The notes: generated by a model not told the origin, from the letters alone. DNA of 53,774 nucleotides from an uncultured Planctomycetales bacterium (GCA_964354585.1 CAYHAI010000102.1:1-53774), one strand, 5' to 3'; shown: positions 12,001-51,000, counted from the stretch's first letter. Numbers and translations are program-made.

Positions 12001-15000
12001 CCATTTCTTTTAAGGAACGAACAATCTTTTTATCACTTTCAGCTAACCCTTGCGCCTCTTTTATAGTAGCCAGCAGATATTTTATTTTTTGAAAATCGGT
12101 AATAGGTAAATTATCTTTGATTTCCTTCTGGATTGCCTTTTCTTTCGCAACCGGCTCTTTAGGCAGTTTACTCGTCGGTTTTTCGCGGTGAGGATCCTGC
12201 ATCGCCACATTCATCCCGCCGCTGGCCGGGCCAGAAGCCGAGCCGTCCCCAATTATTTCCCCATTTATTCCGGCTGTGGTAGAAAGAGCAAAGACGAAAT
12301 CACATTTTGTTATGTCAGCTGCATCGCCGATCGGGACAAAACCCCGCTTTACAAGGAATTCAGGAACGCCGGATTCTTTTGCTTCTAACGCAATAGTTTG
12401 ATCCGATAATGATACCAGCTTCGGAAAGATGAATCTGCGTGGAAGCGCATGAATATTATCGTTATAAGCCGCATACAATATCAATTTAAGAGCCTTTTCG
12501 CCCAAGCCTCTGTGCCGATATTGCGAAAATATCAAGAATCTAAAATAAGCGTCTTCCCATTTTTCGCCGGCACGATACACGTATCCATACCCGACCATCT
12601 TATCTTTATCGTCAAGAATCATGTAATACCGAGACCATGTGGCAAATATATCAATAAAACATATGATACTTTCTCCGGGAATCGAGCATTTGTCAACATA
12701 TGACAAATCGGTATCTTCGGCTATTATCTTTTTGAATTTACGCAAAATAAAGAAACTGAATGCTATGCTAAGATTACGCGAGTCAAGTTCGCTATCAAAT
12801 CTTGCAGCTAGGCGACGCGCTGTTCGTTCATCAAGAGAGCGTCTCTCAACCGGACCGTTTATTACGAACGCGCATATCTCATTTGACTTAGCAAACTTCT
12901 CATGCTCCTCATCCGTCTGTTCAGGATAAACCAAAGCATGGCCTTCGTAGAAGAAGTCTGCTATTGTGGGGTTATCAATGAGAATAACGATTATGTTGGG
13001 CTCGGAACGCAGGTTTAAGATACGGACTGTTGTGTTGCGGTTCTTTTGAAATGCCTTGATTTCTTTACTCAGGTTAGATTTTTCAGGTTCAGGAGGGCCG
13101 GTTTTGACAATAAGATTCTCTAAGATTTCAACTATGTTAGAATCACCCTGGTTATCCTTTAATACCTGAATAGCTGCCTGCCTTAGCTGGTCATATTCGG
13201 TAGTCTTAGGCAAAGCCTTGATTTCCTTTGTATTTCTATCCCTGATAGTCTTTAATTCTTCCATTGCTTTTGTATCGGCCAGGGGCGGGTCGCAGCGAGC
13301 GGGGTCAAGAGAAATCGGCTTGACATAAGTTGTCAAAAATGGTATGTTTGTAATAGAGTTAGGAGGTAAGTAACTATGAATGCAAGAGCTAAAGAAGCCA
13401 AAAGGCACCTGGAAAAATTGCGTAAATTGGTCGCTAATACTCCATCCCCTTTTCAAGGAATGACTCTTGAAGAGGCAATCGCAAAGATGCGAAAAACCAG
13501 GGAACAGCTGTGGGAGGAAAAACTTGCACTTCGTTCTTGATACAAATGAATTTGTGGGCGCAACAGGATTAATCCGCAACCCGCCCTCAGAAACCCTCTT
13601 TAATATTCTAACAGAATCATCGCCAAAGCATACTATCCATATTCCTCGATTGATAATCAACGAAATAAAACGCAATATCCCCCCTAATATTTTTACAGAA
13701 TTTATAAAAACTGTTATTCCGATCGCTATCATTGATGAGGACATCTCAGTGCCTTTTGAGATAGGCATAAGATATGAATCTCTTGGTCTAAAACCTGCGG
13801 ATGCCTTTATTGCCGCATATACAGAATGGACCGGCGCCGACGTATTAGTAACTGAGAATAGACACTTCCTGTCTCGCCATAACCTTCCCTTTAAAGTCCT
13901 TACCGCCGAAGCCTGCCTTAAAGTTTTAGGTAAATAAACCAACCCGCCGCTGGGGTGGCCAAAAACGCTACTTAGTTGTTCAAGCACAGCGTCATACTCA
14001 TCTGAATAAGACCAGAATATTTCAGGGTATCTTTTTACGATGCTCAGAGGAATTAAAATAATGCCGACATCTTCAGCTAACTCTGATAAATCACCGGCAG
14101 CATCTAAAATAAAATCATATCCGGCTAAAGAGATAATCAGGTAAGTATGGTGTTCGTATCCCTGAAATCTATCGTCTTCTCGGTTAAAAATGGAAGAATG
14201 TATTTCATAATATAGAATATCTTTTATCTGTTCGGCCATTTCCCCAGAAGCCCTGCCACAAGGATTTATCTTAAAGTCGGATTGCTTAACCTTTACTCTT
14301 GTCTCATCGAGCTTATCAAAACGGGCTGCTAATGCTTCCACTTGCTCAAGCTGAGCCCTGTTTAATCTTTGGCCAGCATTTAATTCTTCCAAAATAGGCA
14401 GAATACGGCTCTTAAAATTCCTCGCCTCAAATCCTGTATACCTTGTAAAATCAGCTCTACTAATCCACATTCCCGGCAAAATTCCGGCAAAAAGTAGCCC
14501 TAAAGGCAATTTGCTTACCGTAGCAAAATGGTGACCAGAAAACAAATGGCTACCAACCAGCGTTACAATAGCGGCTGCGGCAAGAGCCACTAGGCCCCAA
14601 CCAGCCACGGTGAGGAAGCCCGAAGAAAATACCTGCCGCAAACGCATCTTTAAATATTCTTGACTTGGAGATAAATATATAGTATGCTCTTTGACAGAAA
14701 GAGGTGAAGAGTTATGCGAAAAGATATCAAAAAATCTATGGAACGAATTAACAAAATCCAACAACTTATGTCTAAAGTTCGCTCTCCTTATCGTGGCAAG
14801 AGTAAACAAGAAATAGTTGAGGAAATCCGCAAGACAAGAGAAAGAATCTGGGAGGAAAAGTTTGCTATTCATTCTCGATAGTAATGAGTATATATTTGCC
14901 CTTGGTGCAGTTCGAGACCCAAACAGCGAAAAAGTCCTAAAGAAAATAGCGGAACGGCCCGAAGACATCTTTGTGCGTATAACAAGATTAATTATTGAGG

Positions 15001-27000: not shown

Positions 27001-30000
27001 CTTGCGGCGGCTGGGGATGGGGCGGAGCCTGAGATTCCTTATGTGCTGCCGACTGGCTATCCTCTTTCCTAATATGCGCGTTGGCTACATCGGTCTCACC
27101 TGAGGCAATCTTCCTCTCTAACTCCAGCAGGGCCACCAATGCCTCCATCAGCATCACATCAATCTCGGTGTGGCCGGCTAAGATAGCAACATTGAAGTTG
27201 GACGAGCAACTTTCGCTTATTCTTTCCCACATCGTCCTGATTTGCTGCGATTTATCAATCAGTTTATCTTTTGCCTCTTTTACCTTTTCCTTGTCTTTTG
27301 AAGCAAGCCGTATGCTACAATAGGAGCGTTCCTCTTCACTAAGCGCATTCCAGACGCTTTCCAAAAGTTCTAAGTGGGGCTCAATTTCTTTCATACGATT
27401 AAATGTCTCTTCTACTTTATCGCTCAATCGTTTCAAGACGTATGTTTTTTCACCTAATTGCGGGACAAATCCTATACAATGGCTATGCAGATATTCGTCT
27501 AAACTTGCGCGTTCGGCCTTAAATTGTTCTTTTAGCGCAGGAGCAAAATATACATTCTCAATAATCATTTCAATAATACGCTCTTTGTCAAAATTATTGA
27601 GCGCGTAATTATAAAGTTTGAGCACCCAGCTGTTTGGCCCATCCTCTGAGAAATAATTCAATATCTCTTGTTGCGCCTCCAAATCTTGATTCTTGAAATG
27701 GAGCACGCTGTTATATATCGCTACCAATTGCCTGATACCTGAATTACTCTCCACTAACGGTAAGAGGCTCTCCCCTACTTCATGGAAACTGATTAAATGC
27801 TCTAGAAGATAAAGATATTCTAAGGCCTGCTCAGCTAATTCCAGCGTCTTACCCTTTAAAGCCGCTAATTTATCTCCTGCCTTTGCCGGTAAAACCTTAA
27901 TACTATCTATACAAAGCAATTTCCAGGAAGGTAATTTATCTAAAATGGGCTGAATCATGTCTGCAAATCTCCAAAGGCCCTCTATGCGTTTTCTGCTTGT
28001 AGGAAGGCCATCCGAAGCAGCCCACTCTGAATCAATCACCGTCACCAATGTCCCGGATTCAATCCAACGGCTCTGCGCTATTGAAACAGGCTCTTCCATT
28101 AAGATATGGCCAGAAGCTTGGGACGGTTCTGGATTGGTAGTCGTTATTGCAAATGGTTCTACAATGCCAAAGACTTGATAAAAGGCGGCGATTTCTTTAA
28201 CTGTAGCCTTTTTAGCCAATTGGAAATCTTGGCGCGCTGCTAAAAGCATCTCGGCTAAAAACTTATCCCGCTCTTTTTCTGGGATAAGCCTGGCGCGGGT
28301 AATTTGACGCTTTAACAATCCTACTATAACTTCTAAGATTTTTTCACGTTTATGTTTCTTGAGATTGGGAATGAGGCGGCCAAAGTGGTCAACCTTGATG
28401 ATTAAAAGGATAGTGCCAGCAGCCTTAAAGCAGGCAGAGCGTTCGGAAAGGAAAACCGTCTTGCGCAGGATGGCTTGCCAGTAGCGCGGCGCGCCGCGCA
28501 CAAGATTATTATCTCTTGCCCAGTCGCGGAAGACCTTGTTAAATACTGCTTGGTCATCAGCATAACCCTTAATCTTTCCTAAATGCACTTGGTTGCTAAA
28601 AGTGCTATAAATGGTCATAAACTGGGCTACTTTGCGCGACTCCTCCACAATATTACAGATTAAATTCAACTTTTCTAAGATTTTATCTTTCTTCTTTTGC
28701 TCCTGAGTCGAAAGCCCTGTGGTAAAAAGAAGCCCTGGCTGGATAGTGAGTGTTAATTCCTCAGCCAATTTGCCGGAGTCGATAATTTTACTGCGCACGC
28801 CCAGAAAATCGGGTTCGCTCAAATAGGGTAGCTGAATAAATGCTTTTAAATTATCCGCGGCTGTTTTCATCGCCTCGGGCGCCTCTTGCGTCAATAATGC
28901 CTCGCGGATATTTCTAGCCGCATCATAAACCTGGTCAAATCTATTGGCGCCAATTTGGCGCAGTCGTAAACGCAGATGCTCTAAATAGGCCAGTTCACTA
29001 TCTATCTGGTGTAAACGCACCTCCGCAAAGGGGAGACTAACTTCTAAACTGCTCAGCGCAGTTTTAAGATAACGCACTTTCATTAAATCTAAGGCGGTCT
29101 CCAGTTCCCGACGCATATCTTTCTTCGCTTCTACTCTTTTGCCTTTTAAAGAAGAAGTCAGCGCTTCTATTCTCTGGGCAATCTCTTCCAGCTCTCCGGG
29201 CTCATCCGTATCCACCAGCGGCGCTAATTGCGTACTAAGCGCGTTTATTTCTTGGGCTAATTTCTGCGTGTTTAAGTAATCTTTGGCTAAACCGGCAAAA
29301 ATCTTATCCAGAATGCGCTGCCAGCGGTATAACGTCCGAGTTTCTGGCTGCGCTTCTGGAACCGAGGCGCCCGTCTTTCTTCTATATCTACCCATCCAAA
29401 TCGTAATCTTACCGTCTTTTCTCTGCGTAATCTTGGCCCTGCTTTTCTTGCGCTCCAGACGTTCGTCTAACAACTGCTTCCTCTGCTGCGCAAAGGTATG
29501 CGAGAGACCTTTGAAAATCCACAAGGCGGCCATCTCATTTTTTTCTTTGATATACCTTAAGATTTCTCCGGCGCGGGTGATTCTACTTTTGCGGATAGCT
29601 CTTTTCAGTGCCCCCAGGCTTATCTGCACTACTTGGCCGCTGAATCTCTGATAAGCTAATCTAGTCAAGCGCTGTTGTAACTTTCTGATTTCTTCGTATT
29701 TGGCTTTAGCCCGAGCTTCTCGGGGTAGAACGGTCTGGCGGTAAAATAATCTCTTAGTCGAACGTTCTTTTTGTCCGCCCGCCCCGCCCCGCCGATGCGC
29801 CCGTGGACAATCCTGCGCCCCCGCCGCCAACCGCTGCCTAAGCTGCTCGGCGACTTGGGTGAGGGTGAAGCCCTGGGTGGCCATATCCTTGTATATATAA
29901 TCGGGCTGGGAATAGCTATCTTTTTTATCGACTAATTTCTTTAAAATCATATAGCCAAATGTAGCCATATATTCTTCAAAATCAGAGAAATGTGGTTTTA

Positions 30001-33000: not shown

Positions 33001-36000
33001 TTGCAAAGAGCGGCTTAGTAATCGCCGCCGCAGAAATTACAGCCTCGGCATCAAGAGAAAAATCAAGTTGCGCATCGCCAGAGAAAACTGGATAAAAGTC
33101 AGCGATTTCCTGGTCAGACCACTGTGGTTCAAGACATCTTCTTTCCACTGATTGCAAAAGCCGATCCAAATAGGTTCGGTCGCTGGAGGTAATCATACTG
33201 ATATATCGCAGCTCCTTGTCCTCTACGTTCGTCTCATCTATTGAGAAATAATCTCCTCCTTCTTGTCTTGCCAACGTTGATAGCTCTTGAATTACTAACC
33301 TTCTTTGTTCATCTTGGCCGAGTTTCGCAATATGATAACGCGAAGATGGCATAATATAGATTAGTGTGACTAAGCCTCTAAACAGCCAAGCCTGCTTCAG
33401 GGGTTCAGAGAACGAAATAAACTGTTCCCAGGCCCTCAAAGCACACTCATACAGCCGAAATAATACATAACCTTGCAAGCGCGAGCGAACCTCTAATCTG
33501 TCTTGTTCGTGCTCCAACAAGACCACCTTTTCATACTCATTTTTTGCCTTATCAGCAGCGTCAATCTCAGCTGTAACTGACATGAGCTTCTCTGATGTGT
33601 CAAAATAATCTGCCAGCGCAATGTCGTTAAAGAAAGCAATAACTTCCTTAGTGCTGCGATTATGCAGATACTCTTTCATCTCCTGCAAAATTTTTCGGTA
33701 GTCTGCTTGTTGATATGGCCTGCCAAAAGCGACTTTGCCGCGCAGTTGTTGAGCAAAGTCCTGCGCCCGCGCGTCAATTTTTTGGCGTTTCCACCAACAA
33801 GGCGCCTCTGCCTGCCTTGACTGGGTAGATACTGCCAGGCGCCTGCCTTCTTCTGTTGCCTCTACCTTCTGTTTGGCAAATTCAAGTAAGTCTTTCTGCG
33901 ACTCAAGCACGGCATAGAGCCGCTCTATCGTCCGCTCAAAAACTTCATCTACCTGCTTAGCCTCAATTCCTTGAGCGGCATAGAGCGCTCTGAAACTTGT
34001 GGCTAAGGTATGGGCCAAGTTTATATAACGTTCAATATTGGGCTGTGTTGGTTTTGTATTCAGCGCTAGTTGCATGATAAGCCATTGCGCCAGACGCTTG
34101 GCCAGTTTATTCGGCAGAATAGCTATTGGCGGAACAGCCAGCCCCTGAAACTCCGCAGAGCGCAGAACCTCGCTCATAGCCCCAACATCTTCAGGATGAA
34201 CCAAAAGTGCCTCATCTGCTTTGCGTCGTGTTTCTAACGCCTCCACAGCAGCCACCAGCTTCCCTGCCTTTTTCCTCGGCTGAAACCACGCAAGCCCCGC
34301 GTGCAACTCATAAAAGAGCAGCCTGGCTAATCCTCGCTGTTTGGAATTTGACCAGTTCAGTTCGCAAAAAAGTTCCTCATCTACTCGCCCAGCCAAACAT
34401 TTGAGAATTGTTTGGTTGACGCTCTGGCGATTACCCTGTTGTTCTGGTTTGACGAGTTGGATAAGAGCGCTAAGGGCAATGCCCAGTTGTCTGGTGGGCA
34501 GTTCCTTGGCAATGTTCAACCGCCGCTTCTGGACGGTTTCATACTGATTCCCCTGGATAAATTTGGGAACCTCGCCTCCAAAGTAGACTTGGTCAAAGGG
34601 AATCGCCGCAAGTTGTTTTTTAATCTGTTCTGGAATCTCTCCGCCCAATTCGCTGGAGAGCGTATCTATATCAAAGAAGTAGAATAGGCTTTCAATATTC
34701 AGCGCCCGGTCCTGAAGCGCCCCATGCGCCAAATCAGACCCCTTGATTCTGCCCGGCTCTTTCTTAAACTGCTCTAACCGAGTGAAGTAGACGACCCGAG
34801 CAAGGGGGTTGACCTGAAATTTACCAAACTCTCCAAACATCCAGCGCAGGTCAGCCTCATATTCAAGCGCACGTTGAACGCCAATAACTTGCAAAATCGC
34901 CTCAATGGTCTCGCGAATATTAGCAGTGGACTCTCTTAGTTTTCCTTCAAGTTGCTCTGCGACCTTCGCATGCTCTCGTTTATGATGCACTACCTCATGC
35001 ACCAACACCGCCTTCAGCTCCTCGCGATACTTCACAAACCCCAGTAACCCTGATGCCACCAGAATGGTTCCATCAGGCAAGACAGTAGCATTAATCTCCC
35101 GCCACTCCGGTAAGACATATAGAGAGTAGTTTGTGTCCTGCTCACCAAGAGCTTCTTTCAGCGCCTCCCGCGCATAGACCGTTACTGGATGCTCATCGGA
35201 GAGCCTTCCATATTTGAAGAAAAACCATTCCCTCATATAGGCACTAAGCCGATGATATCTCGCCTGCCCCTCGGCCTCAGCATTTGCCACTAACCGCTGC
35301 CTAAGGTCTTCGGCGACTTGAGGGCTGGGGACGCGGCAAGACTCATCAAACACACTTTTTAGTTCTTCTTTTTCCTCATCGCCTTTTACCAAATGAGAAA
35401 TAATTTTCAGAATATTTTTATATGCCCTATGTCCTGCGATATCTGTGATTTTTCTCATTCCATGAAAGTGCACATCTGTCAATACAATATCTCCATTACT
35501 TCTGACTCTAATATGTTCTTCGTCATCTAAATCCGTAACATCGGGCTCAATATTTAAGTCGCTCATTTTTCTTACCAACGTACCTAGTTTTTTAATAAGC
35601 CCTTTTCTTCCTTGATTATCTAAGTCCCAAAATGCTGATTGTATGTTGTATTTAATAAATTCTTCAATAAAATACCAGATACCCGTTCTCTTATCAAGAA
35701 TATGGCCGATGGGAATAGCCATAATTCCCTCCCCTGATAAAGGTAAATTTATATCATACTCAAGACTGCCTACTGCTTCTCCTTCACATTTCAGAACACA
35801 TGAGTTCGTAAGGAAATGGGCTCTTCCTTTCCAATATTCTCTTACCGCTCTAAGCGCTTCTAAATTTTTGACAACGTAGCAGGGTTGGTTTCCTACTGAG
35901 CCTATAAAACAAGGTACTATTTTCCCTAAAGTGGATATTTTACCTTCCAGGCCCAGTTCTCTTTCAAAATTCTGCCTGATTTTTTCTACGCCCATCTCCT

Positions 36001-39000
36001 TATCAACCTCTGCTGGCGAGCCAGTGTGGGGTTTGGGTATGGTGGTAACTGGTTGTATCTTCTCAGCCTTATAAACCGCATAAGCTCTTAGCTCATCTAA
36101 GTTTCCAGGAACCATACTAAAATCGCTTATATCTATTTGCGGTTGTGGTTTAAATTGAACGCCTAATTCTTTTCCCAGGTTTAAGAGTACTTCATCTAAA
36201 TAATATAGGTCTTTTGCAATAAAGGCGATATCATTTGGGTTTTTAGTTCCTTTAAATACAGTGATAGGAAATGCAGCGGGAGCATTGACAAAAATATAGC
36301 CACCATCAAGATTTAAACGGCTTACAATAGGTTCTATCATCTTTTTTATCTTAGACTCAAAATACCTCTTTGCATTATTTTCAACAACTTCAATGTCTGA
36401 ATGTGAAATATCAAGATTTAGCCTAAACCTTAATAAAGCTGCTAATTTGTCATCTCCAAATACATCTGTAACTTCCTGTATAACAGCTAATAATGTTATG
36501 TAATCAAATTTTTTATCTTTTATAGCATCATAGGAAACAAAAATACTTATTTTCTGCTCAAGGGCAAACACTTTATACAGTTCCTTTTGCTCCTCTATTA
36601 CAGACTCATCTATATCAATAACGTTAGTTTTAAGCCCCAGTTTAGCAAGTAAAATTGGCAGATAGTCGTTCCTGCCTGGACCTATAACCAGGGCGCTTTT
36701 ATCCTTTATCAATCCCATACCTGATACTTTTTGAGCAATTTGATGTTTCGTCTCATCATCAAATATAACTTTTCCTGAAATTCTATTTATATCATCAACA
36801 ACTGCTTTGACTTCTTCCTGAGTTATGGGCTTGGATATTCCACTGCCAAAAAGCCGAAACTCACCATTCCCCCAGAAAAGCTGGCGGGTTTCTATATAAT
36901 ATTGCGCTTGCTCAGCTGATATCCTCAAGGTTGGAGGCATTCCTGAAGAGGCCATATTGTTTATCACTTCAACGCAAAATCCATCTTGACGTGAAAGTGG
37001 TTGTATGTTATAGTTTCTTTGCTTAAGGAGGTGCTTTAAATGACTAAAGATAATGGAATGGATATTAGGATCAGAGATTATATCAGCTGTGACCCCGCTA
37101 TCTGTGGAGGAGATCCAGTCTTCAAAGGAACTCGTATCGCCGTTTACCTTGTACTGGACCTGATTGAAGGGGGAGTCAGCATCCAAGAGATTCTTAACCG
37201 CTATTATTCTCAATTGTCGGAAGAGGCAATCAGGGCGGCTCTGCATTATGCCAGCGAACTTATTAAGAGGTCTGAGTTCATCCCTTTCAACCCTGTAGAG
37301 GCGTAGAGTGCGGTTCCTTATTGATGAAAATATACCTAAGGAATTGGCTTCCTGGCTTAAAGAAAGAGGACACCTTATATTTTGCGTTGCCAAGGGAACA
37401 CCTGATGAAAAAGTAGCCGCGCTTACAAAACAACAAAAGTCTATACTCTTAACCCAAAACAGGCATTTTGCCAACTCTTTAAGGTTCCCTCCTCGTGATT
37501 TCCCAGGAATCATCAGAATTAAAATCCATCCTTCATATATTGGAGATATTACTTTTTCTTTAGAAAGACTATTTACCGAATTTACTGAAGAAAAACATTT
37601 CAAAGGCAAACTTATTATTTTAGAGAAATACGGATTCTTTAAACTTAAAGAATAGCTTTGCGTTGGCTTCTGCTTATCCCGCCCCTTCTTCCCCAGCCCG
37701 CCCAGATGCGCCATTTGTGTGCCGCCCATGTTCCTGCCATTTAGATTTTGGTCATCCGGTCCCCGACAACCGGGAAGTTCGGAGATGTGGGGCGGGGTAT
37801 TTTGAGGCTTTGCCCCAAGTTCACCCAGACCTTGAGGAGAATAGACAAAGGCAAACTTAGTGGTACGAAGAACGTCCGGGTAAATGTCATTAAATGCATC
37901 CTTAAAACTTAATAGTTGAAAATCTGATAGTATTTCCCAAGCTGCCGCTGCCTCAACTCCGAAAGATAATGTAGAGCCCCTAAATAAACACTTCATATCA
38001 TCTAGGTCTAATATAATAATGATTAATCCTTTTTCAGCTATTACCTCTTTTGCTATGTGGATAAAATTAGACAAAGTATGTGGACTTGGCGCAAAGATTG
38101 TAATTAAATCTAAATCATATTTGTCACTCCCTTTTACTTTTAAATCATTAACATCAAAAAATGTTACAGGTCGGTTATCTTCTCGGGCAGCTATAACAGG
38201 CTCGAGCAAATTCTCTATTCCAAAGTAATCTACCTCTATGAAATTTCTCTTCAATAACTCCTGCATCGTGAGTGTGGGCCGGCCAGAGCCTGCTCCAAAA
38301 TCAAGCCCACAAATACTCTCTTTGCCAGCAAAGAAATCACATATAAACTTTTCGAAAGAGTCTAGTTCTACTATATTCTGCTTTGAGTCCTTCTCCAACC
38401 GCTGCCTAAGCTGCTCGGCGACTTGGGCGAGGGTGAGGCCTTGCATGTGTAACATTTTTGCGATTTCCTCTTTTCGTACAGGCCCATAATTTTCAGGTTT
38501 GTCGGTTAGATTATGCAAACTCATATAACCAAATACGGCTAAATCTTCTTCAAGATTAGATAACCCGTCTTTCAAAAGCTTTACTGTCTCTTCTTGCGAC
38601 TCGTCCCACTTAAACAAAGACATTGTTTTGGTATCTTTAAAGAATGCTAGTATTCCATGTTTATGAAGTAGGACGTCATACATAGCCACTGCCCTATCCG
38701 ATAATTTCCCAAAACGATTTAAACTCTCTAAGAACTTCTCCCATTGTTCTCTCCCTTCAATAGAATACAAAAATGCAATAAGGCCTTTTGGGCCTTCTTT
38801 TTTAGTTAATTTAATTTCAATGTTTCTGCTTAATTCAATAATTTCTCTTTTAATATTATTAAACCAATAGTAACAAGAAAAGAAACTGAGTGCCGCCAGC
38901 CTGCGATAATTAAACCTCTCTAATTCCTCAAATAGCTTTGTCTGTTCTTTCTCATCCTTATACCTCTCCAAAATCCCTATCGCCTCTTGCATAAACACGA

Positions 39001-42000
39001 ACTCTATCAATTCCTCGTCGACGTGTGACGTGTGACGTGTGACGTGTGACCCGATGACTTTAATCCCTTGCCTCAGTATCTCCAGCGCTGTATCAGCATT
39101 AGGCACATTTCCCTCAAAATACGCCCACGCCGGCAAGACCTCTTCCATAATCCTTCTGGCGGCTTGCTGAATATTTATCTGGCCTGCCTTATAGGCATCG
39201 TAGATATTCACAATCGCTGTATCCACTTCTTCCTCTGAGCCAACAGTGGGCGGGGTGATGTTGAGATGTTTAATTTCACTTGAAAGCGGCTGGCGGGCGA
39301 GGTCAAGGAGAGACTGCGGTACAATATTAAATAAACCGAACTCTGCCATCCTTACAAGGTCCCTTTGCGCCACAGTTCCCAATTCTAAGCTAAGCCCACC
39401 ATCGCTTTCACTTTCATCTATTATTCTTGCATTAAACTGAAATCCTCCTTGGCTAAGCTTTGTCATCTCTTCCCGAATCTCTTGCGCAGTTGCTTCCTTG
39501 CCGTTTAAGAAAAATTTCTTTATTCCGCTGGGTGGAATAGGGACAGAATTCTTACTCTGCTGCTCTGATGGCTGCTGCCCCTCTGGGCCGATACCGCTGT
39601 CCTTCGCAAAGGCGCAAAAACCATTGACATTCTTGCCTATATCAGGTATATTATTTTTATGGCGAAGAAGGGCAAAACTAAAAGCTTCCTTACTGCTTAT
39701 GCTCCTGATTGCCGCAAGCGCCACCAGCATGAGCGGGATAAAAATGAAATAGTAGAATTTGTGGTGCAATTGGAAGTCGTAGTAAAAGGCAGTTGGCAGC
39801 CCGTAATTAGATACGATACTACTCATGGATTTGCTCATTGCGACATCATTCATTATAGTGGAAAGACGGAAAAAGTAAGGATGCCCACTCTTGATTATAA
39901 AGAAGCGTTGACCTATGCTGATGAAGACCTGAATGAGAATTGGCAGACTTACCGCAATCGCTATTTTAAGGAGGTAATTAATGATTAATGAGAAATATTT
40001 TTGGGAACTACAACGAACTCTCTCTGCAGAATTTAGTAAGTATGTCCTCGCCCATCCAGAGATAGACGACCAAATACCGGATAATGCCCAGATAATCTTC
40101 CAACTTAAGGGTAATGCGGATTTTAATGCCTGGAGTAAAAAGATAAATCTCTCCCAAAGAGAACCAAGCCAACCACTGATTATCGTTGAGATAGATGACC
40201 TGGCGCCGCCCTTAGAATCAAGGCTGGTCAATCCCCACTTAGAGGTTGCTTTTAAGTAAGTTTGTCTTATTGTCCCCACCAAAACCACAGCTAATACTAA
40301 TGTCCCGATGCCCCACCCATAACTACTACTCTGCCCGCCAAAACCAAATCTGCCAAAACCCGCGGCAAGAGAAGGCGTAGCAGAAGCAAGAAGGATGCCG
40401 AAGATGAATATGAATAGGCCAAGAATTGTGCTTGAACCCGGCGAGTCTGTGGAGGAATGCCAAGGTTCCACATACCCTAAAGCTAAATTCAAAACTCGCT
40501 GAAAAATTACATTATAATAATCTGGTATCTCCTGAATTTTTACTTTATGAACATTTTCGGGTCCTACAGTAACAGTGCTGCCGTCTTTGAGTCCTAACGT
40601 AGCTGAAATCTCAAGTTCGTCACTAACACGTTGTGCCTCTTTTAAAGTATTAATAAATTTTTTCCAGAGTTCTCCATAGAAGAAAATGCCCCGATGTTCT
40701 TGGCTTAAAGAAATCATTGTGAAAATTGCTTGTGTAGTATACTGAAGTGAGTATAGAGTCTGGGCTTCTCCTTCTTTTATTCTTGCGATTAGCTCTTCTT
40801 CTGAAATAACTTCTCCTGTAATAAGATAAGATATTGTTGCAATACATGCCTGCCAATTTTTGAATACTCCAAAATCTAATGTTTCTGTATGTCCCTGCGG
40901 AGGTTCAAATCTCTTCTTCTTTGCATAGCTTAATGCCTCCTCTATAGTAAAATTAAGTTCAGTCATGCTGCTTAATCTGAAAAGAACAGTTAATGTGAAA
41001 GCAAATAAATTTTGCAAAAATTCTTCTCTTTTACTTAAATCAACGGTCCTGCTAAAGTAATCAGCCGCGTCAGATTCCAAAATCGGTTGGATTTGTTTAT
41101 GATAGATTTTTTGCAGGGCGGCTTTGGAGGGACGAAGCATCTGGGGAGAGCCTTGGAATTGGGCGAGGACGGGCATTAATAATTCGGCTTTCTTACGAAT
41201 GCCCTCTGGCACATAGTAAAGCGCATCTTTGCCGGTTCCGATGCGTTGCAATAAATGCAAATATAGCGCTAGCGCCCATAAATCATGCTCAATGGTTGCT
41301 GGCTTCACCTTTAAGCCCTCTGCTATTTGCTTTCGGCTGCGGGCTTTTTCTTCAGTTGTGATTTCCTTCTCGCAAAGCCAATCAAATACTCCCGGGATAG
41401 AGCCAGAGGGGGTGGTATCGGATTTTTCAACCAGCTGGTCATCAAAGCTTTTCATCGCCAGAGGATATTGTAGTTTTGAGAGCCACCCCGGTACACACAA
41501 ACGCCAAGTCTTTATCTTGCTACCTTCTCTGCCTAAGCGCACTTCTTTGATGTTCGCTAAACACTCAAGAAATCTACCTATGGCTAAACAATAATCCCTC
41601 ATTCTCCAGATTAACTTATCTGTCAATACCAATGAAGAGCCCTCCTGCAATAATACCACCACGTCTGTCCTTAAGGGATGATTTAGATTTCCTATATTGT
41701 GTATGGCTTCGTAATGGAGAGCTTTTAAAAGGATTTTTAGATTCTCATTCTTGCTTCCCTGGATTTCCCTATCAAAGCTTATCTGATTCAGTAAGTCACA
41801 GATATGCCTTGTTTGGTCATCCATTTCTTTTAAAATTTCTTTTGTTTTCTCTGAAAGCTCCTTTTCTGGAGATAGCTTCTCAATATTCGCTAGAATTGCC
41901 GCGATTATCGGCCCGAACTTTTCTTTCAGGATGCGCGCCTCGGCGTTGACTCGCTGGGCTGGGGTTTGGGTTTGTTTAGCCGGCGGTTGCCTGGCGAGTT

Positions 42001-45000
42001 CGCCGAGGGTTTGGGCAATTTTTTCGCCTGCCAACGGCAGCCTAATCGTAAATGTCGTGCCTTTGCCCTCTTCTGACTCCGCCGCAATGGTGCCGTTGTT
42101 TTTCTGGACTAATTCTCTGACAATTCCTAAGCCAAGGCCGTGGCCTTCGCCTTTACTGGAGAAAACAGCCCTGCCGCTGTTAAAGGCATCTACCTTATCT
42201 TGAGGCATACCGCTTCCCGTATCGCTGATCCTGATTTCAACAGCGTCTTCTGCGCTGCGAGTTTTTACTGTTACTGTGCCTTCGCTTTTCGACATAGCCT
42301 CGCAGGCGTTTCTGAGAAGGTTAATGAAAACTCTAAACAAGTCGCCTGCGTTTGTTTTTAGCAAAGATCCCCCTTGGGCATAATCTCTATGGATTTGAAC
42401 TTTCGCAAAAAGAGCTACTTCCGCTACCAAAGCGGCATCTAGCAACTCCTTGGGGTCAACCTCTTTTTCTTCTTGAGCAAATAGTTCTAAGGTGTTGGAC
42501 AAAATTAAAGATATGGCCTTAGTTCCATATTCAAAGAACCAAGCATCTTGAGCTATTTCTGGTTCTGGAAGACGATGCACTTCCCTACTTATTCTTGCAA
42601 TCTCTGAGTTTAATAAAGCGATTCTCTCAGGAGTGAGTATTTCTATCAATTCTTTAGCTGCCTCTACATAAGAAGATACATTTGGCCCTAAGTCGTCCTC
42701 GTTGTCGCATATTGTGTAAGCAGCATCCCTTAACTGCATTACTACCTCTTTACATCGTGTACAAAACGCCTTAATATTATCATCTGCGGTGTCTGATTTA
42801 ATCCAGCCTACGTTACCAGTCAGTATATTTAGCATGTTCATCATGTCGTGATGTATGGCCCCTAGTCTTCTTGCCAAACCGCCATTGTTTTGCGGTCCTA
42901 TCTCCCTCAAATCAACTCCGGCGGGTTGGGCTTGTCTTTTATCGCTACCGGGCGATTCAGTAATTTTCTTCAAAACAAGGATTCCTCTTGGAGTAAAATT
43001 GAGGTTGCCTTCGTCTATTCCCAAAAATTGCTTAGAAACCAAAGAAAAACCCGATTTTCTAAACAACCCCTCCCACTCCTCTATGTTTTTGAACGTAAAT
43101 GGGGCCTGCATATTTAGTCTCCCAAGCACGCTATTGTTTAACCAATCGCAAAAAGCTAAAACAGATTTTCTTTGACTATCACTAACTTTTAAGAATTTTG
43201 TTAACAGCCCACTTTTGTAAATAGGCTCAATTTCATTAGAAAATGTATCTTCCAGCACAATTAGTATGCCGCCCATTTTTAAGGCACGGTTTATATCGTT
43301 TAAAATATTTTCTTGGCCGCCTCTTTCAATATGATGAGACACATAGCTCAATACTGCCGTATCAACTATACCTGTATCTATTGGTACCTTATCTTTTTGT
43401 TGCTGCAACCTAAAATCTACTGAAGGATTAGATATGCTGAGTCTATTTTCCAAATCTGTGGCAATAACTTTTTCTACTTGGGTGCTGTTTTTCAGTATTA
43501 TTTCTGATAATAGGCCGTTTCCACAACCTATGTCGGCAACTAAAGAACCTGCTATAAACTCGCGAATTAGCCCAAACTTGTGTTCAGCTCGCCCTTTAGG
43601 ATCATATTTTTCAAATATTGAATTAAACTCTGAATTTAAAACGTACCTCTTAATAATAGAAAAAGCCTCTTCTTGATCCTCGTTTGTACACTGCTCTGAC
43701 AAAACATCTAACAAGCCTTTTATGGCAGGTTGTGAAATTCCAAGGCGTTCGAAACTATCGTAAAATGCAGCAGTTAAGAACGCCTTTGAAGCTGGATCGG
43801 AAAAAACTACAAGAGGGTTTATTGGACGCTCTGAGTCCGTCTTATCTTCTCCTTTTGAAGATCTGCCGCTCCCAAAAAGCCGAAACTCGCCATTCTCATA
43901 GAAAAGTTGGCGGGTTACGGCAAACCAGATTGCTTGCTTAATCTCTATTCTAATTTTTGGCATATCTGGAGCCATTTCATTTATAGCCACTATTTCTTCT
44001 ACGCCTTTAACTTGGAGCTGATGCAGCTTGACCAGGGCCTGCTCTTTTTTCATTAATTCATTTGCCGCCTGCAAAAGTTTCGGTAAAACAGGTTGTAGGC
44101 CTGCTTCCAAGTGAGAAATATATTGGAAGTGGAAAGGCTGGCGTGCAAGTTGCCTACCCAGGACTTGGCCAAATTTTTCTAGGCTAAGCCCTAATGCTTC
44201 GCGGACCTTCTTTAGTCTCTGGCCGGCTTTTTCTCGATACACTCGCCCTGCAGCAATCAAAAGCTTAGGTGGAACAACAAATCTTCCTGTCTCTAAGTCC
44301 CCAATATAATCTTCAGTGTAGGGTTTCTTGCGGTAAGGTTTCTTGCGCCTAAGTTGTGCTGCCAGCACTTGACCAAATTCTCTCTGGCTAAGGCCTAATA
44401 ATTCACGGATTGCCTTAATTCTTAAACCAGCTTGTTCTCGGTATAATTGCTTGGCAGCATGCAAAAGCTTCAATGGAACAACAGGTCTTCCTGCTGCTAT
44501 TTTAATAATATGTTTGGAAAAGGGGTTGCGCTCAAGCTGCTCACCCATGACCTTACCAAATTCTTCCCAGCTAAATCCTAACCGTAGGCGGATGTCATTG
44601 AGTTGCTTGCCCAATTTTTTTTGATTCTTCCGATACACTTGCTCTGCGGCATCCAGAAACTTCTGCAAAAACTTTATGGAGGCAGCAAATCTCCCTATCT
44701 CTAATTGAGCAATACAACCCCTGCTGAAAGGCCTATGGCGCTTAAGTTCTCTAGCAATAACTTTACCGAATTGTGTCTGTTCCATTCCTAACGCCCGGCG
44801 GATATCCCCTAATTTCTGGCCGACCCTCTTTCGATTCTCTTCAAATACTTGCTCTGCGGCATAAAGAAACCGCGGCGGAACAAAGTCTAAACCTTTTTCT
44901 AAACGAGAAATATACGCCCTGGTGTAAGGTTTCTTGCGTCCAAGTTTCTGAGCAAGGGCCCGGCCAAAATCTTCTAAGCTAAATCTTAGCGCCTGACGGA

Positions 45001-48000
45001 AAGCCCTTAATCTCTGGCCAGCCCTGTCTCGATACAACTGCTCTGCCGCTTTCAGAAGCCCTGCTGAAATATGACAGCCTCCTGCAAGATAGGAAACGAG
45101 TGCTTCGTTGAATTCTTCCTGAGTGAAGCCTAACAATCTACGGATTTCCTTTAGCCACTGGCCAGCTGTCTGAGCATTCACCACCTTCCCCTCAAAATAC
45201 GCCCACTCTTCCATAATCCTTCTGGCGGCTTCCTGTATAGCACATTCTATCCTTTCCCTTGCATTTATTGTGTAAGCGATAGAAAGGCCTGTTAACGGAT
45301 TCTTTTTCTCCCATTTCTTTAAGGTGGGCAAGGCTTCCCGAGCCTCCTTACCCATATCTCCTAACTTATTTAACATAAATTGGGCGGTCAAGTCATCAAC
45401 TTGAGGAATCTGGTCAAGAAGATAGCTTACTATATCCTTATATTTAATCTCACAGAGGAATTCAATAATACTGTCGCAGAAGCCTCCTTCGGTTTCTTCT
45501 CTATCTTTAAGTCTCTTAAACAATAAAGGAGCTGCCTGTTGCTTTACTTTCTCCTGAGCACCAGTAACTATTGCTATTGAACTATAACGAATATTATTAT
45601 CCTTATGCTCAATGGCGCTTATAAGCTCAGGAGTTACCTCTTCTAATAAATTGCCTATAGCGCTTGATAAGATTCCCGGATCCATATGTTCAGGTTGAAA
45701 CAGATGCTTAAATAATTCTCTTAACGCTGTGTCTCTATCATAAATACCAATCTGGCCTAAGGCTATTGCTGCTCTTGTCTGCTTACTTGTGCTACCAGTC
45801 TTCAGTACCTCAATAAATTCAGGTATTGCTCGGGCAGAGGCTTTTCCGCATTCTCGAAGAGAACTGGCAAAGCTCATCGTATTGGAAATGGGCTCTCTTT
45901 CATCCAAAATCCATCTGACTAAATCAGAAATATAGCCTCTGGTAACTTTGGGTCGGATAAGAACAGGCCCCTGTTGGTACGTACCCATTAGCTGTTGATA
46001 TTTTCCTTTCTCAGTGAGTCCGGGTATACGTAGCGTATTATTTATCCCTATATAAACTCCCCTTACGGTCGATAAACTTCGCATAACTTTATTAAGCAGT
46101 GACAGATTATCTTTCATGGATTTAATAAGCCCATCGGTTAACTTTTTAAAACTGAAAGCATCGTTTACAGCACAGGATATATCTCTTGAAATTATTCTTA
46201 TGTAAGGCCTTAAGGTTTCTTCAATGGCATCTAAAAGAAGAGCGCGATTTTGATTTTGTTCGTGGATTATTCGCTGCTCTAAGTCAAATAAGGCTTCTTC
46301 GGATGCCTTAAGTAAATCAGCCATATGAGTATCAATTTGTTGCAGTAGTCCTTTTTGATTTTCAGAGAGAGCTTGAGCAGATAACTGCTCTATTTTCAGT
46401 CCCACTTCCTTCATAATAGGTTTTATTCTTTTATGTAAAACTCGCGCCTCTCTCCTTACTCTCCAAACAGGCATCTCTTTTGCAACCGGAATTTCTTCTT
46501 TTTTCTCTCTGCCTATCTTTACAGGCAAACAGATAGTAAAGTCAGAACCTGGGGTGATACGCCTGCCCAACGCTATCCTCTCAACTATCCAAAGGCCCCA
46601 ATCTAATGCTGAAGCAACACTTAACATGAGGTCTTTCTGGTCTGCGCTATAACCATAATTTGGCTCACTTGAAGAAAATCCAGACAATGCCTTGTATGGC
46701 TGCCCGAGTAGCAACCATAAATTTTCCAAAGTCCCCGCTTGGCATCTTACCTCATAGATATCAAATGACTCCTGGAGCAATGTCCCTGAGGATTGCATTA
46801 AGTCAAATACATACTTTACCTCTTCCTTAGTAAAATGCTCGCCTTGGGCAGCAAGTTCTCTTAAGGCGTCTCTTAACTTACTCACTTCTTTATGGCACAT
46901 TGTATAAAGCCGATGGACATACTTCAGTCCTAACCTTCTTACTTCTTCCTCGCAAGACCTACAATACTCCGCGAAATCAGATATATCAGTTTTATCTTTA
47001 CCTACTTCTTGGATTTGTTCTTGGGTTAACGACTCCACCGCAATTGTGCCGCCGGCATCTTTTATAGCATACCATGCCTCGGTTAATCCTAAACCCGTGC
47101 CGCCTTCCCGCTGAGAAACGTTGAAGTTAAATATAAGGGGTCTCTGCATTATTGGGTCTATTTTTAATAATTCTTGAGGAATGCCTGGTCCGTTATCTGA
47201 AATAGTTATCTTGACTAAGCCTTTTTCTTCGACTAAAGTAACTATAACTTTTGCTTCTTCACCTTGTTCCGCATTGGCAAAATGTACAGCGTTATTTATG
47301 ATGTTGTCTATAGCGCTCTTAAGGGTTAGGCGATTTGATGAGGTTTCGCATGACGCGGCAATATTGTTTACAACTGTGACGTATCGCCTTTTTTGACATA
47401 TCTCAATAATTAATTCAACGATATCCTGGGCAGCATGAGGGGACACAGCAGTTGCTAGTTCTATACGGCTCTGCAATATCTCTATAATTTTACTTATATA
47501 GTTGGCTATTTTTTCAAATTGACTTACAAATAAATATTGCTTGGTTGAGGCGTCTCCCTGATAACAATAATCAAAATGCTTGCGCTTTTGTTCTATTTCG
47601 GTTATTTGCTTGCTTAGTCCCTCTGCAACTTGCTGTATGCTTTTTATATACTCTTGAGCCTCATCGGCTGTTAACTTGCCTTGCCTTGAAGATTCCCCCC
47701 CTTTTAAAATAATTTCTATTAGATTGCGCATTATATTGCCTGAAAAATTTTTGTCCACCTTGCTTAAATCTTCTCTCAGCTGTCCGGTAGATTCATTCAA
47801 ATTTAAAATTATATTCGCCAATTTCTGTTCAATGTTTGCTGAATATTGGAAAATATCGAATATTTTTCTGCCATGCCTCAAGCTTCTTATCGCCACTCCT
47901 GCGCGTTCTATTTTCTCTCTTTCCTCCGCCAGCGGCTGCCGGGCGAGGGCACCGATAAAGTCATGAGTAATAATACATATGGGGCTATCTGCATCTGTAT

Positions 48001-51000
48001 GGAGCGTATCTGATACGCCGCCAAAATTCGTTTTAGTTATTTGGCGATATCCTTCCTTAACAATATATCCCAAATAGATACGTAATTTTCTTTCTTCGCC
48101 GGGCTTCAAACGTAGAAAAATAAGGCCATTGGGTTTCAATAAGGAAAGTATGGGCGATCCCTGCTGCATTTGCTCTATTAAGCTAATCTCATACGGCGCC
48201 ATAATAAAAACAACATCAAACCTTTGCTGGTTTTCTTTGCTCGAAGCAAACTCTATCACATTTTGTTTAATTACTTCAGGGAAATTTTCCGGATGACGTT
48301 CAAACACTAACTTATCCACACTCAAGAACTCTTGGAATAAGCCGGGGTATCTACATTGCATATTTCTAGCAAAGTTTCCGGGGCCGGAGTATAGATCTAC
48401 AGCCGTAATCTTCTTGTTCTCTCCAAACCATTTCCGAATAAGTTCAGCGAAGTTAGAAGAATCTTCTAAAATCTTTGCTCTTTCATCAGTAGAAAGAGAA
48501 ACAGAAGACCCTTTATTTATGAGTTGCTGCTGGTTAGTATGGTTATTAACAGAACTCCCATACGCATCGCCTCCTCCCACCACCCCCGCCATTGCCCAAT
48601 ACCCTGCTGAACCGCCCAATCCCCCTATCCCCAACGCTTGAGTAAGAGGACACGAGAGTGAAACATCGGCGGGATAGAAAGTTTGACCTTGACTTATTAA
48701 TCTATTTATTGTATATATAATTACAGAGGTGATAAAAATGAGACTCAAAATTGTCTTAGAGAAAGGCGAAGATGGATATATTGTTGCCAGTGTCCCCTCC
48801 TTACCCGGCTGCCACAGCCAAGGCAAAACCGAGAAAGAAGCGCTTAAAAATATCAAGGAGGCAATCCTCTTATATTTAGAACCTAACCCCAAAGATATCC
48901 GCCCCGCTTCTAACCATAAAGTCCTTAGTCTGGCAATATGAAACCACCCCTGCTTTCGGGTAACGAAATTATCCGCGCCTTCCTGCGCGCCGGATACTTT
49001 AGAGTTGACCAACGCGGCAGCCACGTCAAGCTTTTTAAACCCACCAAGCAGATTACCCTTATTATTCCCAACCACCGAGAAGTTGACCGCTGGACGCTTA
49101 AAGGCATTCTTAAAGATGCTGAAATATCCGTAGAAGAATTCCTGAAGCTTCTCAGATAACCTTCCAAAGTTCTCTTTCTGAGTCATTATCCCCGCCAAAA
49201 CCGCAGCTAACGCTAACACCCCAATAATACCCACCCAATAACTACCGCCCTGCCCGACCAAACCAAATCTGCCAAAACCCGCGGCAAAACAATCCTGGGC
49301 GCTGGCAAGAAGGATGCCGAAGATAAATAGGCCAAGCCCAAGACCCGATTTTGAAGGCCCTCCTGGGGTGTCCCTTGCCGACAATGCTTCTTGTAACTGC
49401 TTAAATTTATAATTCATTACTGCAAGAGATTTGCTAAGGTCTTGATCCATTAACCTGAGGAATCCCAGTCTACGATTGAGATTATCCTGATATCTATTCG
49501 AGAAATATTTGAAGGCTCCATAGGATAGGTAGGGAATAATTATTGGTAAAGAATAAGCAATAATTACAGGCGAAAAGGAAACATCAGGTGATAAACAATA
49601 GAGCCAGATAAAAAGAGGGGTGGCAATGACGGCAAATATAGTAAGTATGGATAATATCTTCTTGGCTATCTCATCTATCAAATATAGTTTATCTACCACT
49701 GCGCGTTTCTCAAGAAGCCTTTCCAGCAATTGCTTATTTTTCAGATATCGTGCAACCAGGCCATCTTCAACTGTCTCTTTAGTGACAATCCCGAAAACCC
49801 CAGCCAGGCAAATTCCGCTTACTGGATGCATCCGCTGTCCCAGCCAGCGCAAGATATCCCATACCTGGCTGATGAGGCCTGCTTTAATCAGAAGGATCCC
49901 TAAGGTTATTATTCCGCAAATCAATAAAGCAAGGGAAATAATAAAACCAGATAAGTAAAGCTCTATTTCTTTTCCTTCGCTAACCAACCTCTTATAATAC
50001 GCCAGGTTATCCTCCCTCTGAATTAATTCCTTAGCCGGGACAAATCCTGGAATGGACCTTTCCTTGCCTTTATACACCACCAGAAGACCACAGAACTGGC
50101 TATCACACCCTCGGTAAGCAATTCCCGTAGGTATTACCGTAAGTTTCGGCCGCTGCTTGCCCTGCGTCAATAATGTTTGCAGTCGGGCTAACTCCGCTTC
50201 CTCACTGAAATCATTATTTTTAAACTTTCCACCCGCAATTATCGTCATCGCCAGATTCGTTCCCCAGATTCCCGCTCCTGCCACACCCAAAAGCTGACTA
50301 ATTTGATGCATAAGCGCTGCCTCGCCGCGCAGGAGCGCATCCAGCAAGAGGCCAAGGGTGAGGGTGGCTGCAGCCAAGAAGATTAAAATTAAAACCGAGG
50401 CGCTGCCAGTTACTCGGTTAAATAAACCCTTGGCGACTGGCTTTGGCCACCTTTCAGAATGCTTTTTAATTATTGGCCCCCATAATTCCTTATAATCCTT
50501 AACTTCTTGCAAAATAAACCGGAGAGCCTCGTCAATCTGCTCCAATGCCTTAAGCATCTCTTGAGTTACCCCAGGGGATGCGCCTAGCCAGTTCTCACTC
50601 ACGGTACTAATGGTAATGGTAAAATCCAAAACGCTATATTTACCTTTTACTATTATCTGTCTATGTTTTAAGAGTGTACCTATAGGTAAATAATCTGCCT
50701 TTATTTCTTTTATGGTGCATTTTCCGATAGTTTGATTGATTTTAAGAGATTTAGGTGCGGCTTTGGCGGAGGTGTCTTGAGATGACGGCGCAGGTTCTTC
50801 TACCAATGATTTATACCTGGGGTCTTTGGCTAAAAGTTGCAAATAGGCATTGTATTTTTCATCTTTAGCTATTCTGATATTCTTGATAATCAGTTTCTCA
50901 AAGTTGCTTATATCTTTGGGTTCACCTTCTTTATTAAGCGAAGGTTCAAGAACCTCACTTAACCACTTTTCGTTAATTCTATCAACTGCTTTTCCATCGG

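Follow-up and report, generated by a model that had tools for sequence, protein, structure and literature searches.

How a bacterial open reading frame (ORF) can run without a stop codon through complete genes, promoters and a tRNA on the opposite strand is the question raised by the window, a stretch of 53,774 nucleotides (nt; GCA_964354585.1 CAYHAI010000102.1:1-53774) that is recorded as an uncultured Planctomycetales bacterium and was analysed throughout by computational means. One minus-strand frame, with codon starts at plus coordinates equal to 2 modulo 3, contains 0 stops over 2..53773; it runs past both ends of the window, so that its 17,924 codons are a minimum length. The other two minus frames carry 1,452 and 1,406 stops, and the plus frames 1,117, 997 and 572. 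A sequence-only reading had proposed that seven two-gene cassettes resembling toxin-antitoxin (TA) systems and one tRNA unit lie antisense within this giant frame. All eight intervals are indeed free of giant-frame stops, with 2-24 stops in each of the other two minus frames, and they total 4,521 nt, matching the span of about 4.5 kb given in that reading. With a further unit resembling a small RNA (sRNA), the nested units number nine, all antisense to the giant frame. Codon-usage likelihood favours the giant frame in 346 of 357 segments of 300 nt, and the 11 exceptions are exactly the reported units; a codon-usage classifier without stop penalty at 180 nt was too noisy and was not used. The giant frame and its nested units, with lengths of small proteins in amino acids (aa), are as follows.

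2..53773, minus strand: internal part of the giant ORF, at least 17,924 codons, with Pfam domains and about 39 hydrophobic segments
13320..13937, plus strand: unit 1, promoter TTGACA-17-TATGTT (13320-13348), antitoxin-like gene 13376-13540 (54 aa) and PIN-like gene 13524-13937; directly adjoins an HPSGG motif
13319-13939, minus strand: giant-frame filler peptide of unit 1, VYLPKTLRQASAVR...
14660..15275, plus strand: unit 2, a paralog of unit 1, promoter at 14660, antitoxin-like gene 14714-14881 (55 aa) and PIN-like gene 14862-15275
20390..21043, plus strand: unit 3, promoter at 20390, DUF433 gene 20445-20687 and DUF5615 PIN-like gene 20693-21043
22530..22685, plus strand: unit 4, promoter TTGACA-17-TAACAT, tRNA 22567-22640 and terminator hairpin at about 22648-22685
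22704..22808, plus strand: ninth unit, sRNA-like, promoter 22704-22732 and terminator hairpin 22771-22808
25436..26134, plus strand: unit 5, promoter at 25436, DUF5678 gene 25485-25730 and a retropepsin-like aspartyl protease gene running from 25646 or 25712 to 26134
36986..37655, plus strand: unit 6, DUF433 gene 37040-37306 and DUF5615 gene 37308-37655
39624..40259, plus strand: unit 7, promoter at 39624, DUF7718 gene 39659-39988 and DUF5647 gene 39981-40259
48688..49159, plus strand: unit 8, promoter at 48689, HicB-like gene 48738-48941 and HicA gene 48938-49159

Judged from their family matches and expression signals, the plus-strand ORFs of these units are bona fide genes. Searches with hidden Markov models, which the sequence-only reading had suggested as a check, bear out the TA-like cassettes. 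The nested proteins match the Pfam families DUF433 (7e-18 and 2e-20), DUF5615 (2e-23 and 7e-15), DUF7718 (1e-35), DUF5647 (3e-19), HicA (7e-17), HicB (6e-9), DUF5678 (6e-6) and Asp_protease_2 (3e-5), and the tRNA scores 64.9 bits in Rfam as a canonical cloverleaf of 74 nt. The eight longest other plus-strand ORFs of the window have no Pfam match. Each cassette starts with a near-consensus sigma-70-type promoter and a Shine-Dalgarno (SD) site (GGAGG, AGAGG or GAGG), and the pattern TTGAC-N16-19-GTWTRY occurs eight times where 0.52 occurrences are expected, always on the plus strand and in six of the eight cases at a cassette start. The architecture of type II TA systems, that is, two small adjacent or overlapping genes with their own promoter and SD sites, is found in 7/7 cassettes. 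Recognised TA families are present in units 3, 6 and 8 (DUF433/DUF5615 and HicB/HicA), units 5 and 7 being merely TA-like pairs of DUF genes; the JGI name for the PIN-like DUF5615 family is 'predicted nuclease of predicted toxin-antitoxin system'. Terminators are not evident in the TA units. Searches of the nested proteins against NCBIfam, PADLOC and PDB sequences gave no matches, nor did an exact look-up of the DUF7718 protein.

The giant frame is actively kept open through these units, by phase and by codon choice. The sequence-only reading had put the chance of such openness at about e^-72 on a uniform-codon null; that null is too naive, and the figure is overstated for the PIN cassettes, but openness beyond chance is upheld by better nulls. 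When the 14 nested coding sequences (CDSs) were synonymously recoded with host codon usage, as that reading had recommended, the probability of no antisense stop ranged from 0.47 to <5e-4 per gene, with a product of ~1e-23. Among the nested genes, the seven in codon alignment with the giant frame use the codons TTA, CTA and TCA in 0/642 positions, against 39/716 in their seven sister genes in the other phase (P = 2.4e-16), and the sister-gene rate of 5.4% equals that of the host, 5.5%. The reciprocal test, for offset-2 stops at codon junctions, gives 0/716 in the second-phase genes and 29/642 in the codon-aligned ones (P = 4e-15). Every two-gene cassette keeps both genes off the stop-prone phase, for which the expectation is (1/3)^7 = 4.6e-4, and of 42 nested genes from the window and 12 other loci, phase 2 holds 30, phase 0 holds 12 and phase 1 none. 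Promoters, SD sites, AT-rich spacers, the tRNA and a terminator hairpin had likewise been said to be read through; the non-coding part of the units, 515 nt in all, contains 0 stops in the giant frame, compared with 13 and 11 in the other minus frames. Non-nested DUF433/DUF5615 pairs have 13 and 6 stops in the equivalent frame.

That the arrangement might be due to chance or artefact, whether shadow ORFs, base composition, an alternative genetic code or misassembly, draws on the general shortage of stops in frames antisense to coding DNA, plus frame 2 of the window having just 572 stops. Against this stand full-length Pfam matches with E-values down to 1e-35, the score of the tRNA, and the recoding, codon and phase statistics, and an explanation of this kind is scarcely credible. 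Its components can be dismissed individually: shadow ORFs by the Pfam matches and the statistics, an alternative code by the standard stop codons in which the plus-strand genes end, and misassembly by the recurrence of the arrangement in independent assemblies from ENA, JGI, Logan and NCBI.

A comparison of the DUF5615 gene of the window with five nested relatives from independent assemblies reveals which of the two readings is conserved. Substitutions at plus-strand codon positions 1/2/3 number 8/6/36, 16/11/32 (in two contigs), 30/25/69 and 29/19/59, with plus-protein identities of 0.90, 0.83, 0.65 and 0.66 and corresponding identities of the giant-frame peptide of 0.65, 0.68, 0.32 and 0.43, and the giant frame is without any stop in all of the relatives compared. 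Because substitutions concentrate at the plus-strand wobble positions, it is the nested protein that is conserved, and the giant reading is constrained just to stay open. The substitution pattern thus indicates that the nested proteins are under purifying selection and that the giant peptide across the cassettes drifts, never gaining a stop.

The arrangement also recurs, on the evidence of genome and metagenome assemblies, across many giant ORFs of the Omnitrophota. With the PIN alignment as query, 185,579 species genomes were scanned and 35 loci returned, the best of them in metagenome-assembled genomes (MAGs) of Ca. Omnitrophota (84%). In 12 loci the PIN cassette lies antisense inside a frame that is open from one end of the locus to the other, up to 20.4 kb, and in 2 further loci inside open frames of 5.4-6.5 kb; all 14 of the 14 nested PIN cassettes share their phase with the window. 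Other genes nested in PIN loci belong to the Pfam families HicB, PIN_3, DUF5615, DUF5647 and NTP_transf_2. Six nested relatives of the DUF433/DUF5615 cassette on independent contigs (L037, L038, L042-L045) have 0 stops in the mirror frame of the cassette; five of the six contigs are open in that frame from end to end, and L037 over 1-2419 (2.4 kb). Homologs of the nested genes also occur in ordinary non-overlapping contexts (L039, L040, L041 and 20 PIN loci). Selection for an uninterrupted frame, as had been proposed for the window, is accordingly backed by the phase restriction, the avoidance of antisense stops, the substitution pattern and this recurrence in independent genomes.

Several features of the databases bear on how such loci are recorded. 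Gene callers evidently suppress nested genes on long contigs, and the arrangement may have gone unnoticed so far for that reason. Close homologs of the DUF5615 protein (59-90%) in the protein database come almost solely from contigs of <4 kb (P0001-P0034). The giant-frame translation of the unit 1 filler matches 80 protein clusters, including internal segments of proteins of 2,526, 4,250 and 6,065 aa. In L037, the open frame lying over five nested plus-strand genes ends at 2419, with an overlap of ~90 nt (2328-2419) with the end of a 552-aa minus-strand ORF in a different frame. Either a frameshift or assembly indel inside a giant ORF or the true 5' end of one could account for this.

Are the nested units long-standing parts of the giant gene? 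Distant giant ORFs resemble the window in the cassette regions alone, the flanking giant sequence being unrelated. One relative of the giant frame itself, found with a 930-aa giant segment, is a metagenome contig, L001 (Ga0315286_10000102), the 21.7 kb of which are wholly open in one frame and which shares syntenic blocks with the window at 64-88% aa identity. No antisense coding regions and no tRNA were found in its 21.7 kb. A comparison of orthologous giant genes had been called for by the sequence-only reading: the L001 junctions orthologous to those of units 1, 2 and 6 are empty, and the frame is open there. Cassettes are thus gained and lost between relatives. This bears first on the idea that the giant ORF arose by the welding together of same-strand genes, intervening opposite-strand genes being overprinted as stops were lost. 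Such an origin would suit modules with domains of stand-alone type (histidine kinase, response regulator, sigma-70 region 4, M50) and units at module boundaries. It is very improbable, because just small TA-type genes are nested (42/42, with no housekeeping gene) and because these are polymorphic between relatives, being absent from the orthologous L001 junctions; the same cassette families moreover occur in non-homologous giant contexts.

A host benefit is a second possibility, in which post-segregational killing would remove cells that delete parts of a repeat-rich giant gene. In superintegrons, TA systems are known to stabilise chromosomal cassette arrays. In the window the units are concentrated at 13-26 kb, where modules and motifs of the giant ORF are repeated, and an indel between direct repeats, relative to L001, takes a module and unit 1 together. 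L001 is nevertheless without cassettes over 21.7 kb with its frame intact, which argues that they are dispensable, cassette content is wholly different between relatives, and host benefit is not distinguished from selfish persistence by these results; a guarding function is somewhat unlikely, as judged here. A regulatory role, in which convergent transcription or antisense RNAs tune or gate the giant mRNA, for instance upon stress-induced TA derepression, has in its favour the nine near-consensus promoters that oppose the giant gene within 36 kb, and autoregulation is typical of TA promoters. Relatives do not share cassette positions or content, which is unexpected for a regulatory design, and the TA units are without evident terminators, so that this role is improbable.

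The units had been placed at module junctions, and this is borne out: six of the eight lie 3-41 aa downstream of a transmembrane (TM) hairpin of the giant protein, with unit 1 directly at the HPSGG motif. The hairpins and motif copies are listed here, 'before' referring to the direction of the giant ORF.

22808..22915, minus strand: TM hairpin before the sRNA and tRNA units
26096-26236, minus strand: TM hairpin homologous to that at 22808-22915, before unit 5
15326-15457, minus strand: TM hairpin homologous to that at 22808-22915, before unit 2
40268-40444, minus strand: TM hairpin of another type, before unit 7
49175-49342, minus strand: TM hairpin of the same type as that before unit 7, before unit 8
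21035-21196, minus strand: TM hairpin of a further type, before unit 3
13943..13960, minus strand: 18-nt motif GGCCACCCCAGCGGCGGG (encodes GHPSGG), upstream copy of a perfect direct repeat
11168..11185, minus strand: the 18-nt motif, downstream copy of the perfect direct repeat
22952..22969, minus strand: HPSGG(M) copy with 2 mismatches to the 18-nt core, preceding the TM hairpin before the sRNA and tRNA units
19295..19312, minus strand: HPSGG(M) copy with 1 mismatch to the 18-nt core, at the start of a synteny block shared with L001

Homologous modules start after units 1 and 3 and after units 4 and 5, and homologous hairpins precede units 7 and 8. In other loci adjacency to a TM hairpin is not general, for which reason the hairpin is not counted as part of the mobile unit, and the linkers there are rich in Gly, Ser and Pro. 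The homology between units 1 and 2 extends from the -35 box to a few nt past the stop codon. The linker motif CAYCCCAGCGGCGGG(ATG), which encodes HPSGG(M) and in most copies has the ATG after it, is kept down to codon choice at module boundaries; degenerate copies lie near 12215 and 26275, L001 has a copy at 10010, and the motif is not found at units 3, 6, 7 and 8. Relative to L001, a 2.76-kb indel comprising unit 1 and the following module is bounded by the perfect 18-nt direct repeat, in frame, and at this junction L001 has a single 18-nt copy, no cassette and no module. The motif may be a site of in-frame recombination, a double-glycine cleavage site, or both. As a separate observation, the HPSGG motif coincides with synteny breakpoints. 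The 3' end of the unit 5 protease gene (its last ~10 codons and stop, 26096-26134) overlaps the coding sequence of the conserved giant TM hairpin, and both strands are conserved there.

Cleavage at this motif would allow a further explanation, that the giant product is a polyprotein cut, by peptidases of its own or of a partner, for example after the GG of HPSGG or at the TM hairpins, in which case any stop-free filler would be tolerated because it is discarded. C39 peptidases cut after double-glycine motifs. The ORF itself encodes candidate cleavers in its M48, M50 and Rce1-like membrane proteases, the motif is conserved to codon choice at module boundaries, and West-Roberts et al. suggested that C39/S8 peptidase domains may cleave giant proteins (10.1101/2023.11.21.568195). 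There is, on the other side, no C39 domain in the window, four units lack the motif, and its DNA conservation could reflect recombination or gene conversion; excision of spacers is unlikely, and it would be compatible with the explanation favoured here. Guarding, regulation and spacer excision do not preclude one another.

That explanation, which is probably correct, is that mobile addiction cassettes occupy the inter-module linkers of a giant ORF under strong selection for continuous translation. The ORF would consist of modules parted by linkers, often with an HPSGG motif, a TM hairpin or both, and the linkers would hold compact, self-sufficient opposite-strand transcription units, each with its own promoter. 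Stop avoidance is frame-specific and can be imposed by translation alone, and for this reason ribosomes would have to cross the whole ORF, translating it continuously; the stretches antisense to cassettes (53-233 aa) would be filler linkers, tolerated because linkers are unconstrained. The cassettes themselves would be selfish addiction modules that spread as units already compatible with read-through, in part by recombination at conserved linker motifs, which being in-frame would preserve the frame automatically. Their nested position would guard them from deletion and, as a side effect, may stabilise the modules of a recombination-prone giant gene. A broader formulation, in which the Omnitrophota harbour 'ORF-transparent' mobile cassettes, consisting of TA operons or, now and then, of RNA genes, that need no splicing because one phase of their mirror strand is kept free of stops, with giant ORFs as both their habitat and, by way of absorbed filler and in-frame linker recombination, partly their product, is put forward tentatively and may well prove too broad.

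Several points weigh against the favoured explanation. In 21 non-nested PIN homologs the mirror frame has a mean of 2.1 stops per 610 nt, compared with 12 and 11.6 in the other frames, and 33% have zero; the openness of the PIN family is therefore partly intrinsic, the mirror frame being stop-poor outside giant ORFs too. A naive arriving cassette would bring 6-13 stops, and the model gives no account of the first read-through-compatible copies. The Pfam matches of the PIN-like proteins of units 1 and 2 (3e-3 and 4e-4) fall below the Pfam cut-off, and their PIN assignment, made from these sub-threshold matches and from conserved acidic residues (D6, E47, D93 and E111 are invariant in 20 homologs), is weak; an AlphaFold2 model of the protein from a two-sequence alignment reached a predicted local distance difference test score of 47 and was set aside. 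There is a single indel for which recombination at the linker motif is documented, and no transposase, integrase, terminal inverted repeats (TIRs), target-site duplications (TSDs) or attC-like sites were found in the cassette flanks. Translation through the cassettes is inferred from sequence evolution alone, and the Omnitrophota origin of the window is likewise a deduction.

The PIN family offers an observation of its own. In Nitrospirota, Nitrospinota and Desantisbacteria, and also in one viral contig, the mirror frame is stop-poor even away from giant ORFs (L007-L035, L041), and many PIN 'mirror ORFs' of 205-225 aa have been called as database proteins (P0058-P0090). Such a frame could be a pre-adaptation, the mark of a recent exit from giant ORFs, or a real third gene.

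The giant ORF is most likely an internal stretch of the Archaeovorin type from an Omnitrophota bacterium. Pfam domains are found along the whole frame and include HATPase_c (4e-39), HTH_31, methyltransferases, ABC1, M48, PPDK_N, Rce1-like, HEAT, Response_reg, M50 and Sigma70_r4. The assignment is made because this set matches the domain lists of 10.1101/2023.11.21.568195, in which HEAT_2, HATPase_c, PPDK_N, methyltransferases and peptidases are the top domains of Archaeovorin-type proteins, and of 10.64898/2026.06.07.730766 (class 1), where such sets are also described, and because Ca. Omnitrophota MAGs supply the nearest relatives of the cassettes (84% identity) and most of the nested examples. 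Giant ORFs of Omnitrophota are established (West-Roberts et al. 2023, Seymour et al. 2023, Kizina et al. 2022); ORFs of >20 kb are present in 77/116 Velamenicoccia genomes (PMC10066038). The window resembles the published proteins in a frame that stays open for tens of kb, in its mosaic of enzymatic and signalling domains, in its numerous TM helices and in being poorly conserved from genome to genome. The published cases exceed 30,000 aa, compared with at least 17,924 codons here. SecA domains and an N-terminal C39 or S8 peptidase would be expected of the type, whereas no SecA_DEAD, SecA preprotein-binding, C39 or S8 domain is among the Pfam matches of the 17,924 aa in the window; these could lie outside it. 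Giant-frame segments used as protein queries gave no matches, and the 930-aa segment matched no GTDB genome.

The components of this arrangement are known from other systems, and it is the regular, recoded nesting of whole mobile transcription units in an ORF that appears to be undescribed. With the type II TA cassettes of arrays and islands such as superintegrons, the window cassettes share compact two-gene operons (HicBA, DUF433/PIN-like, PIN), their own promoters, presence in many copies, variability between relatives and residence in a recombination-prone region; they differ in lying inside coding sequence, antisense and recoded, with no attC, integrase or terminal repeats. Integron cassettes have attC sites and an integrase and are promoterless, whereas those of the window have their own promoters and none of the former. 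Overprinted antisense genes of bacteria and viruses likewise place two proteins on opposite strands and prefer the least mutually constraining phases. They arise de novo, whereas the nested genes of the window arrive as whole units with ordinary homologs, and in the window the second, giant reading is selected for openness and not for sequence. Group I and II introns and inteins are also foreign, gained and lost DNA within a functional ORF; they splice, whereas the window units are seemingly read through on the mirror strand. Nested genes in eukaryotic introns are complete opposite-strand units in a larger gene, but bacterial ORFs are without introns, so that the nested DNA also codes for the host.

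Three of these systems were considered as candidate explanations and rejected. Overprinting is ruled out by the existence of nested-gene homologs outside overlaps. An integron, insertion sequence or transposon structure is ruled out by the lack of attC, TIR, TSD and integrase domain and by the promoters that the cassettes carry. A group I or II intron or an intein is ruled out in that Rfam shows the tRNA alone and the filler peptides have no intein-like ends.

As to precedent, the full texts of PMC10066038, 10.1101/2023.11.21.568195 and 10.64898/2026.06.07.730766 contain no mention of opposite-strand genes, promoters or a tRNA inside giant ORFs, and broader literature searches, whose coverage did not extend to Kizina et al. 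2022, did not find the arrangement described; within that reach, the remark of the sequence-only reading that it knew of no precedent holds. Giant ORFs show poor conservation and sparse peptide support (PMC10066038; 10.1101/2023.11.21.568195), and it is not yet settled whether each of the 20-250-kb ORFs of Omnitrophota is translated as one unit. On this point the nested genes are an internal evolutionary reporter. Their phase restriction and the purging of stop-making codons constitute sequence-level evidence for continuous translation of the giant ORF, and complete bacterial transcription units, a tRNA gene included, can evidently sit antisense within an ORF, where standard gene callers hide them. 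That TA cassettes can colonise coding sequence bears on the annotation of TA and defence systems in ultra-small bacteria and others like the candidate phyla radiation (CPR). If 'ORF-transparent' cassettes are real, they would add to introns and inteins a third way for mobile DNA to live inside genes, and the recoding would for the first time prove at the level of sequence that giant ORFs are translated from end to end.

The two RNA units deserve separate description. The promoter of the tRNA ends ~8 nt upstream of it and the terminator hairpin lies downstream. The tRNA has the anticodon GCU, a class-I cloverleaf with a 5-nt variable loop, G73 and A20, and its CCA end is not encoded. In bacteria tRNA-Ser normally belongs to class II, with a long variable arm, and with a variable loop of only 5 nt the tRNA(GCU) of the window falls outside that class. 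There was no exact match to it in viral contigs, and no tRNAs were found in 15 other giant loci. The ninth unit, directly after the tRNA, begins with the best sigma-70 promoter match of the region, TTGACA-17-TATACT (11/12 consensus), and ~35 nt past it there is a strong intrinsic terminator, AAAGCGAGGU...ACCUCGCUUUUUCUUUU (fold z = -3.6); the unit is a candidate sRNA of ~65 nt, with no Rfam family, and the giant frame is open through it as well.

Two further regions of the giant ORF are of note. The segment 28000-36000, which holds the ABC1 and M48 modules and has no nested units and no internal repeats, has a GC content of 0.46-0.48, against 0.40-0.43 elsewhere, and a stronger negative GC skew, and may be of different origin or age. 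At ~44000-45100 on the minus strand (giant aa ~2900-3300) there are tandem helix-turn-helix modules of the XRE type (HTH_31, HTH_3 and a Pou-like match), a content that is unusual for a supposedly membrane or extracellular giant protein.

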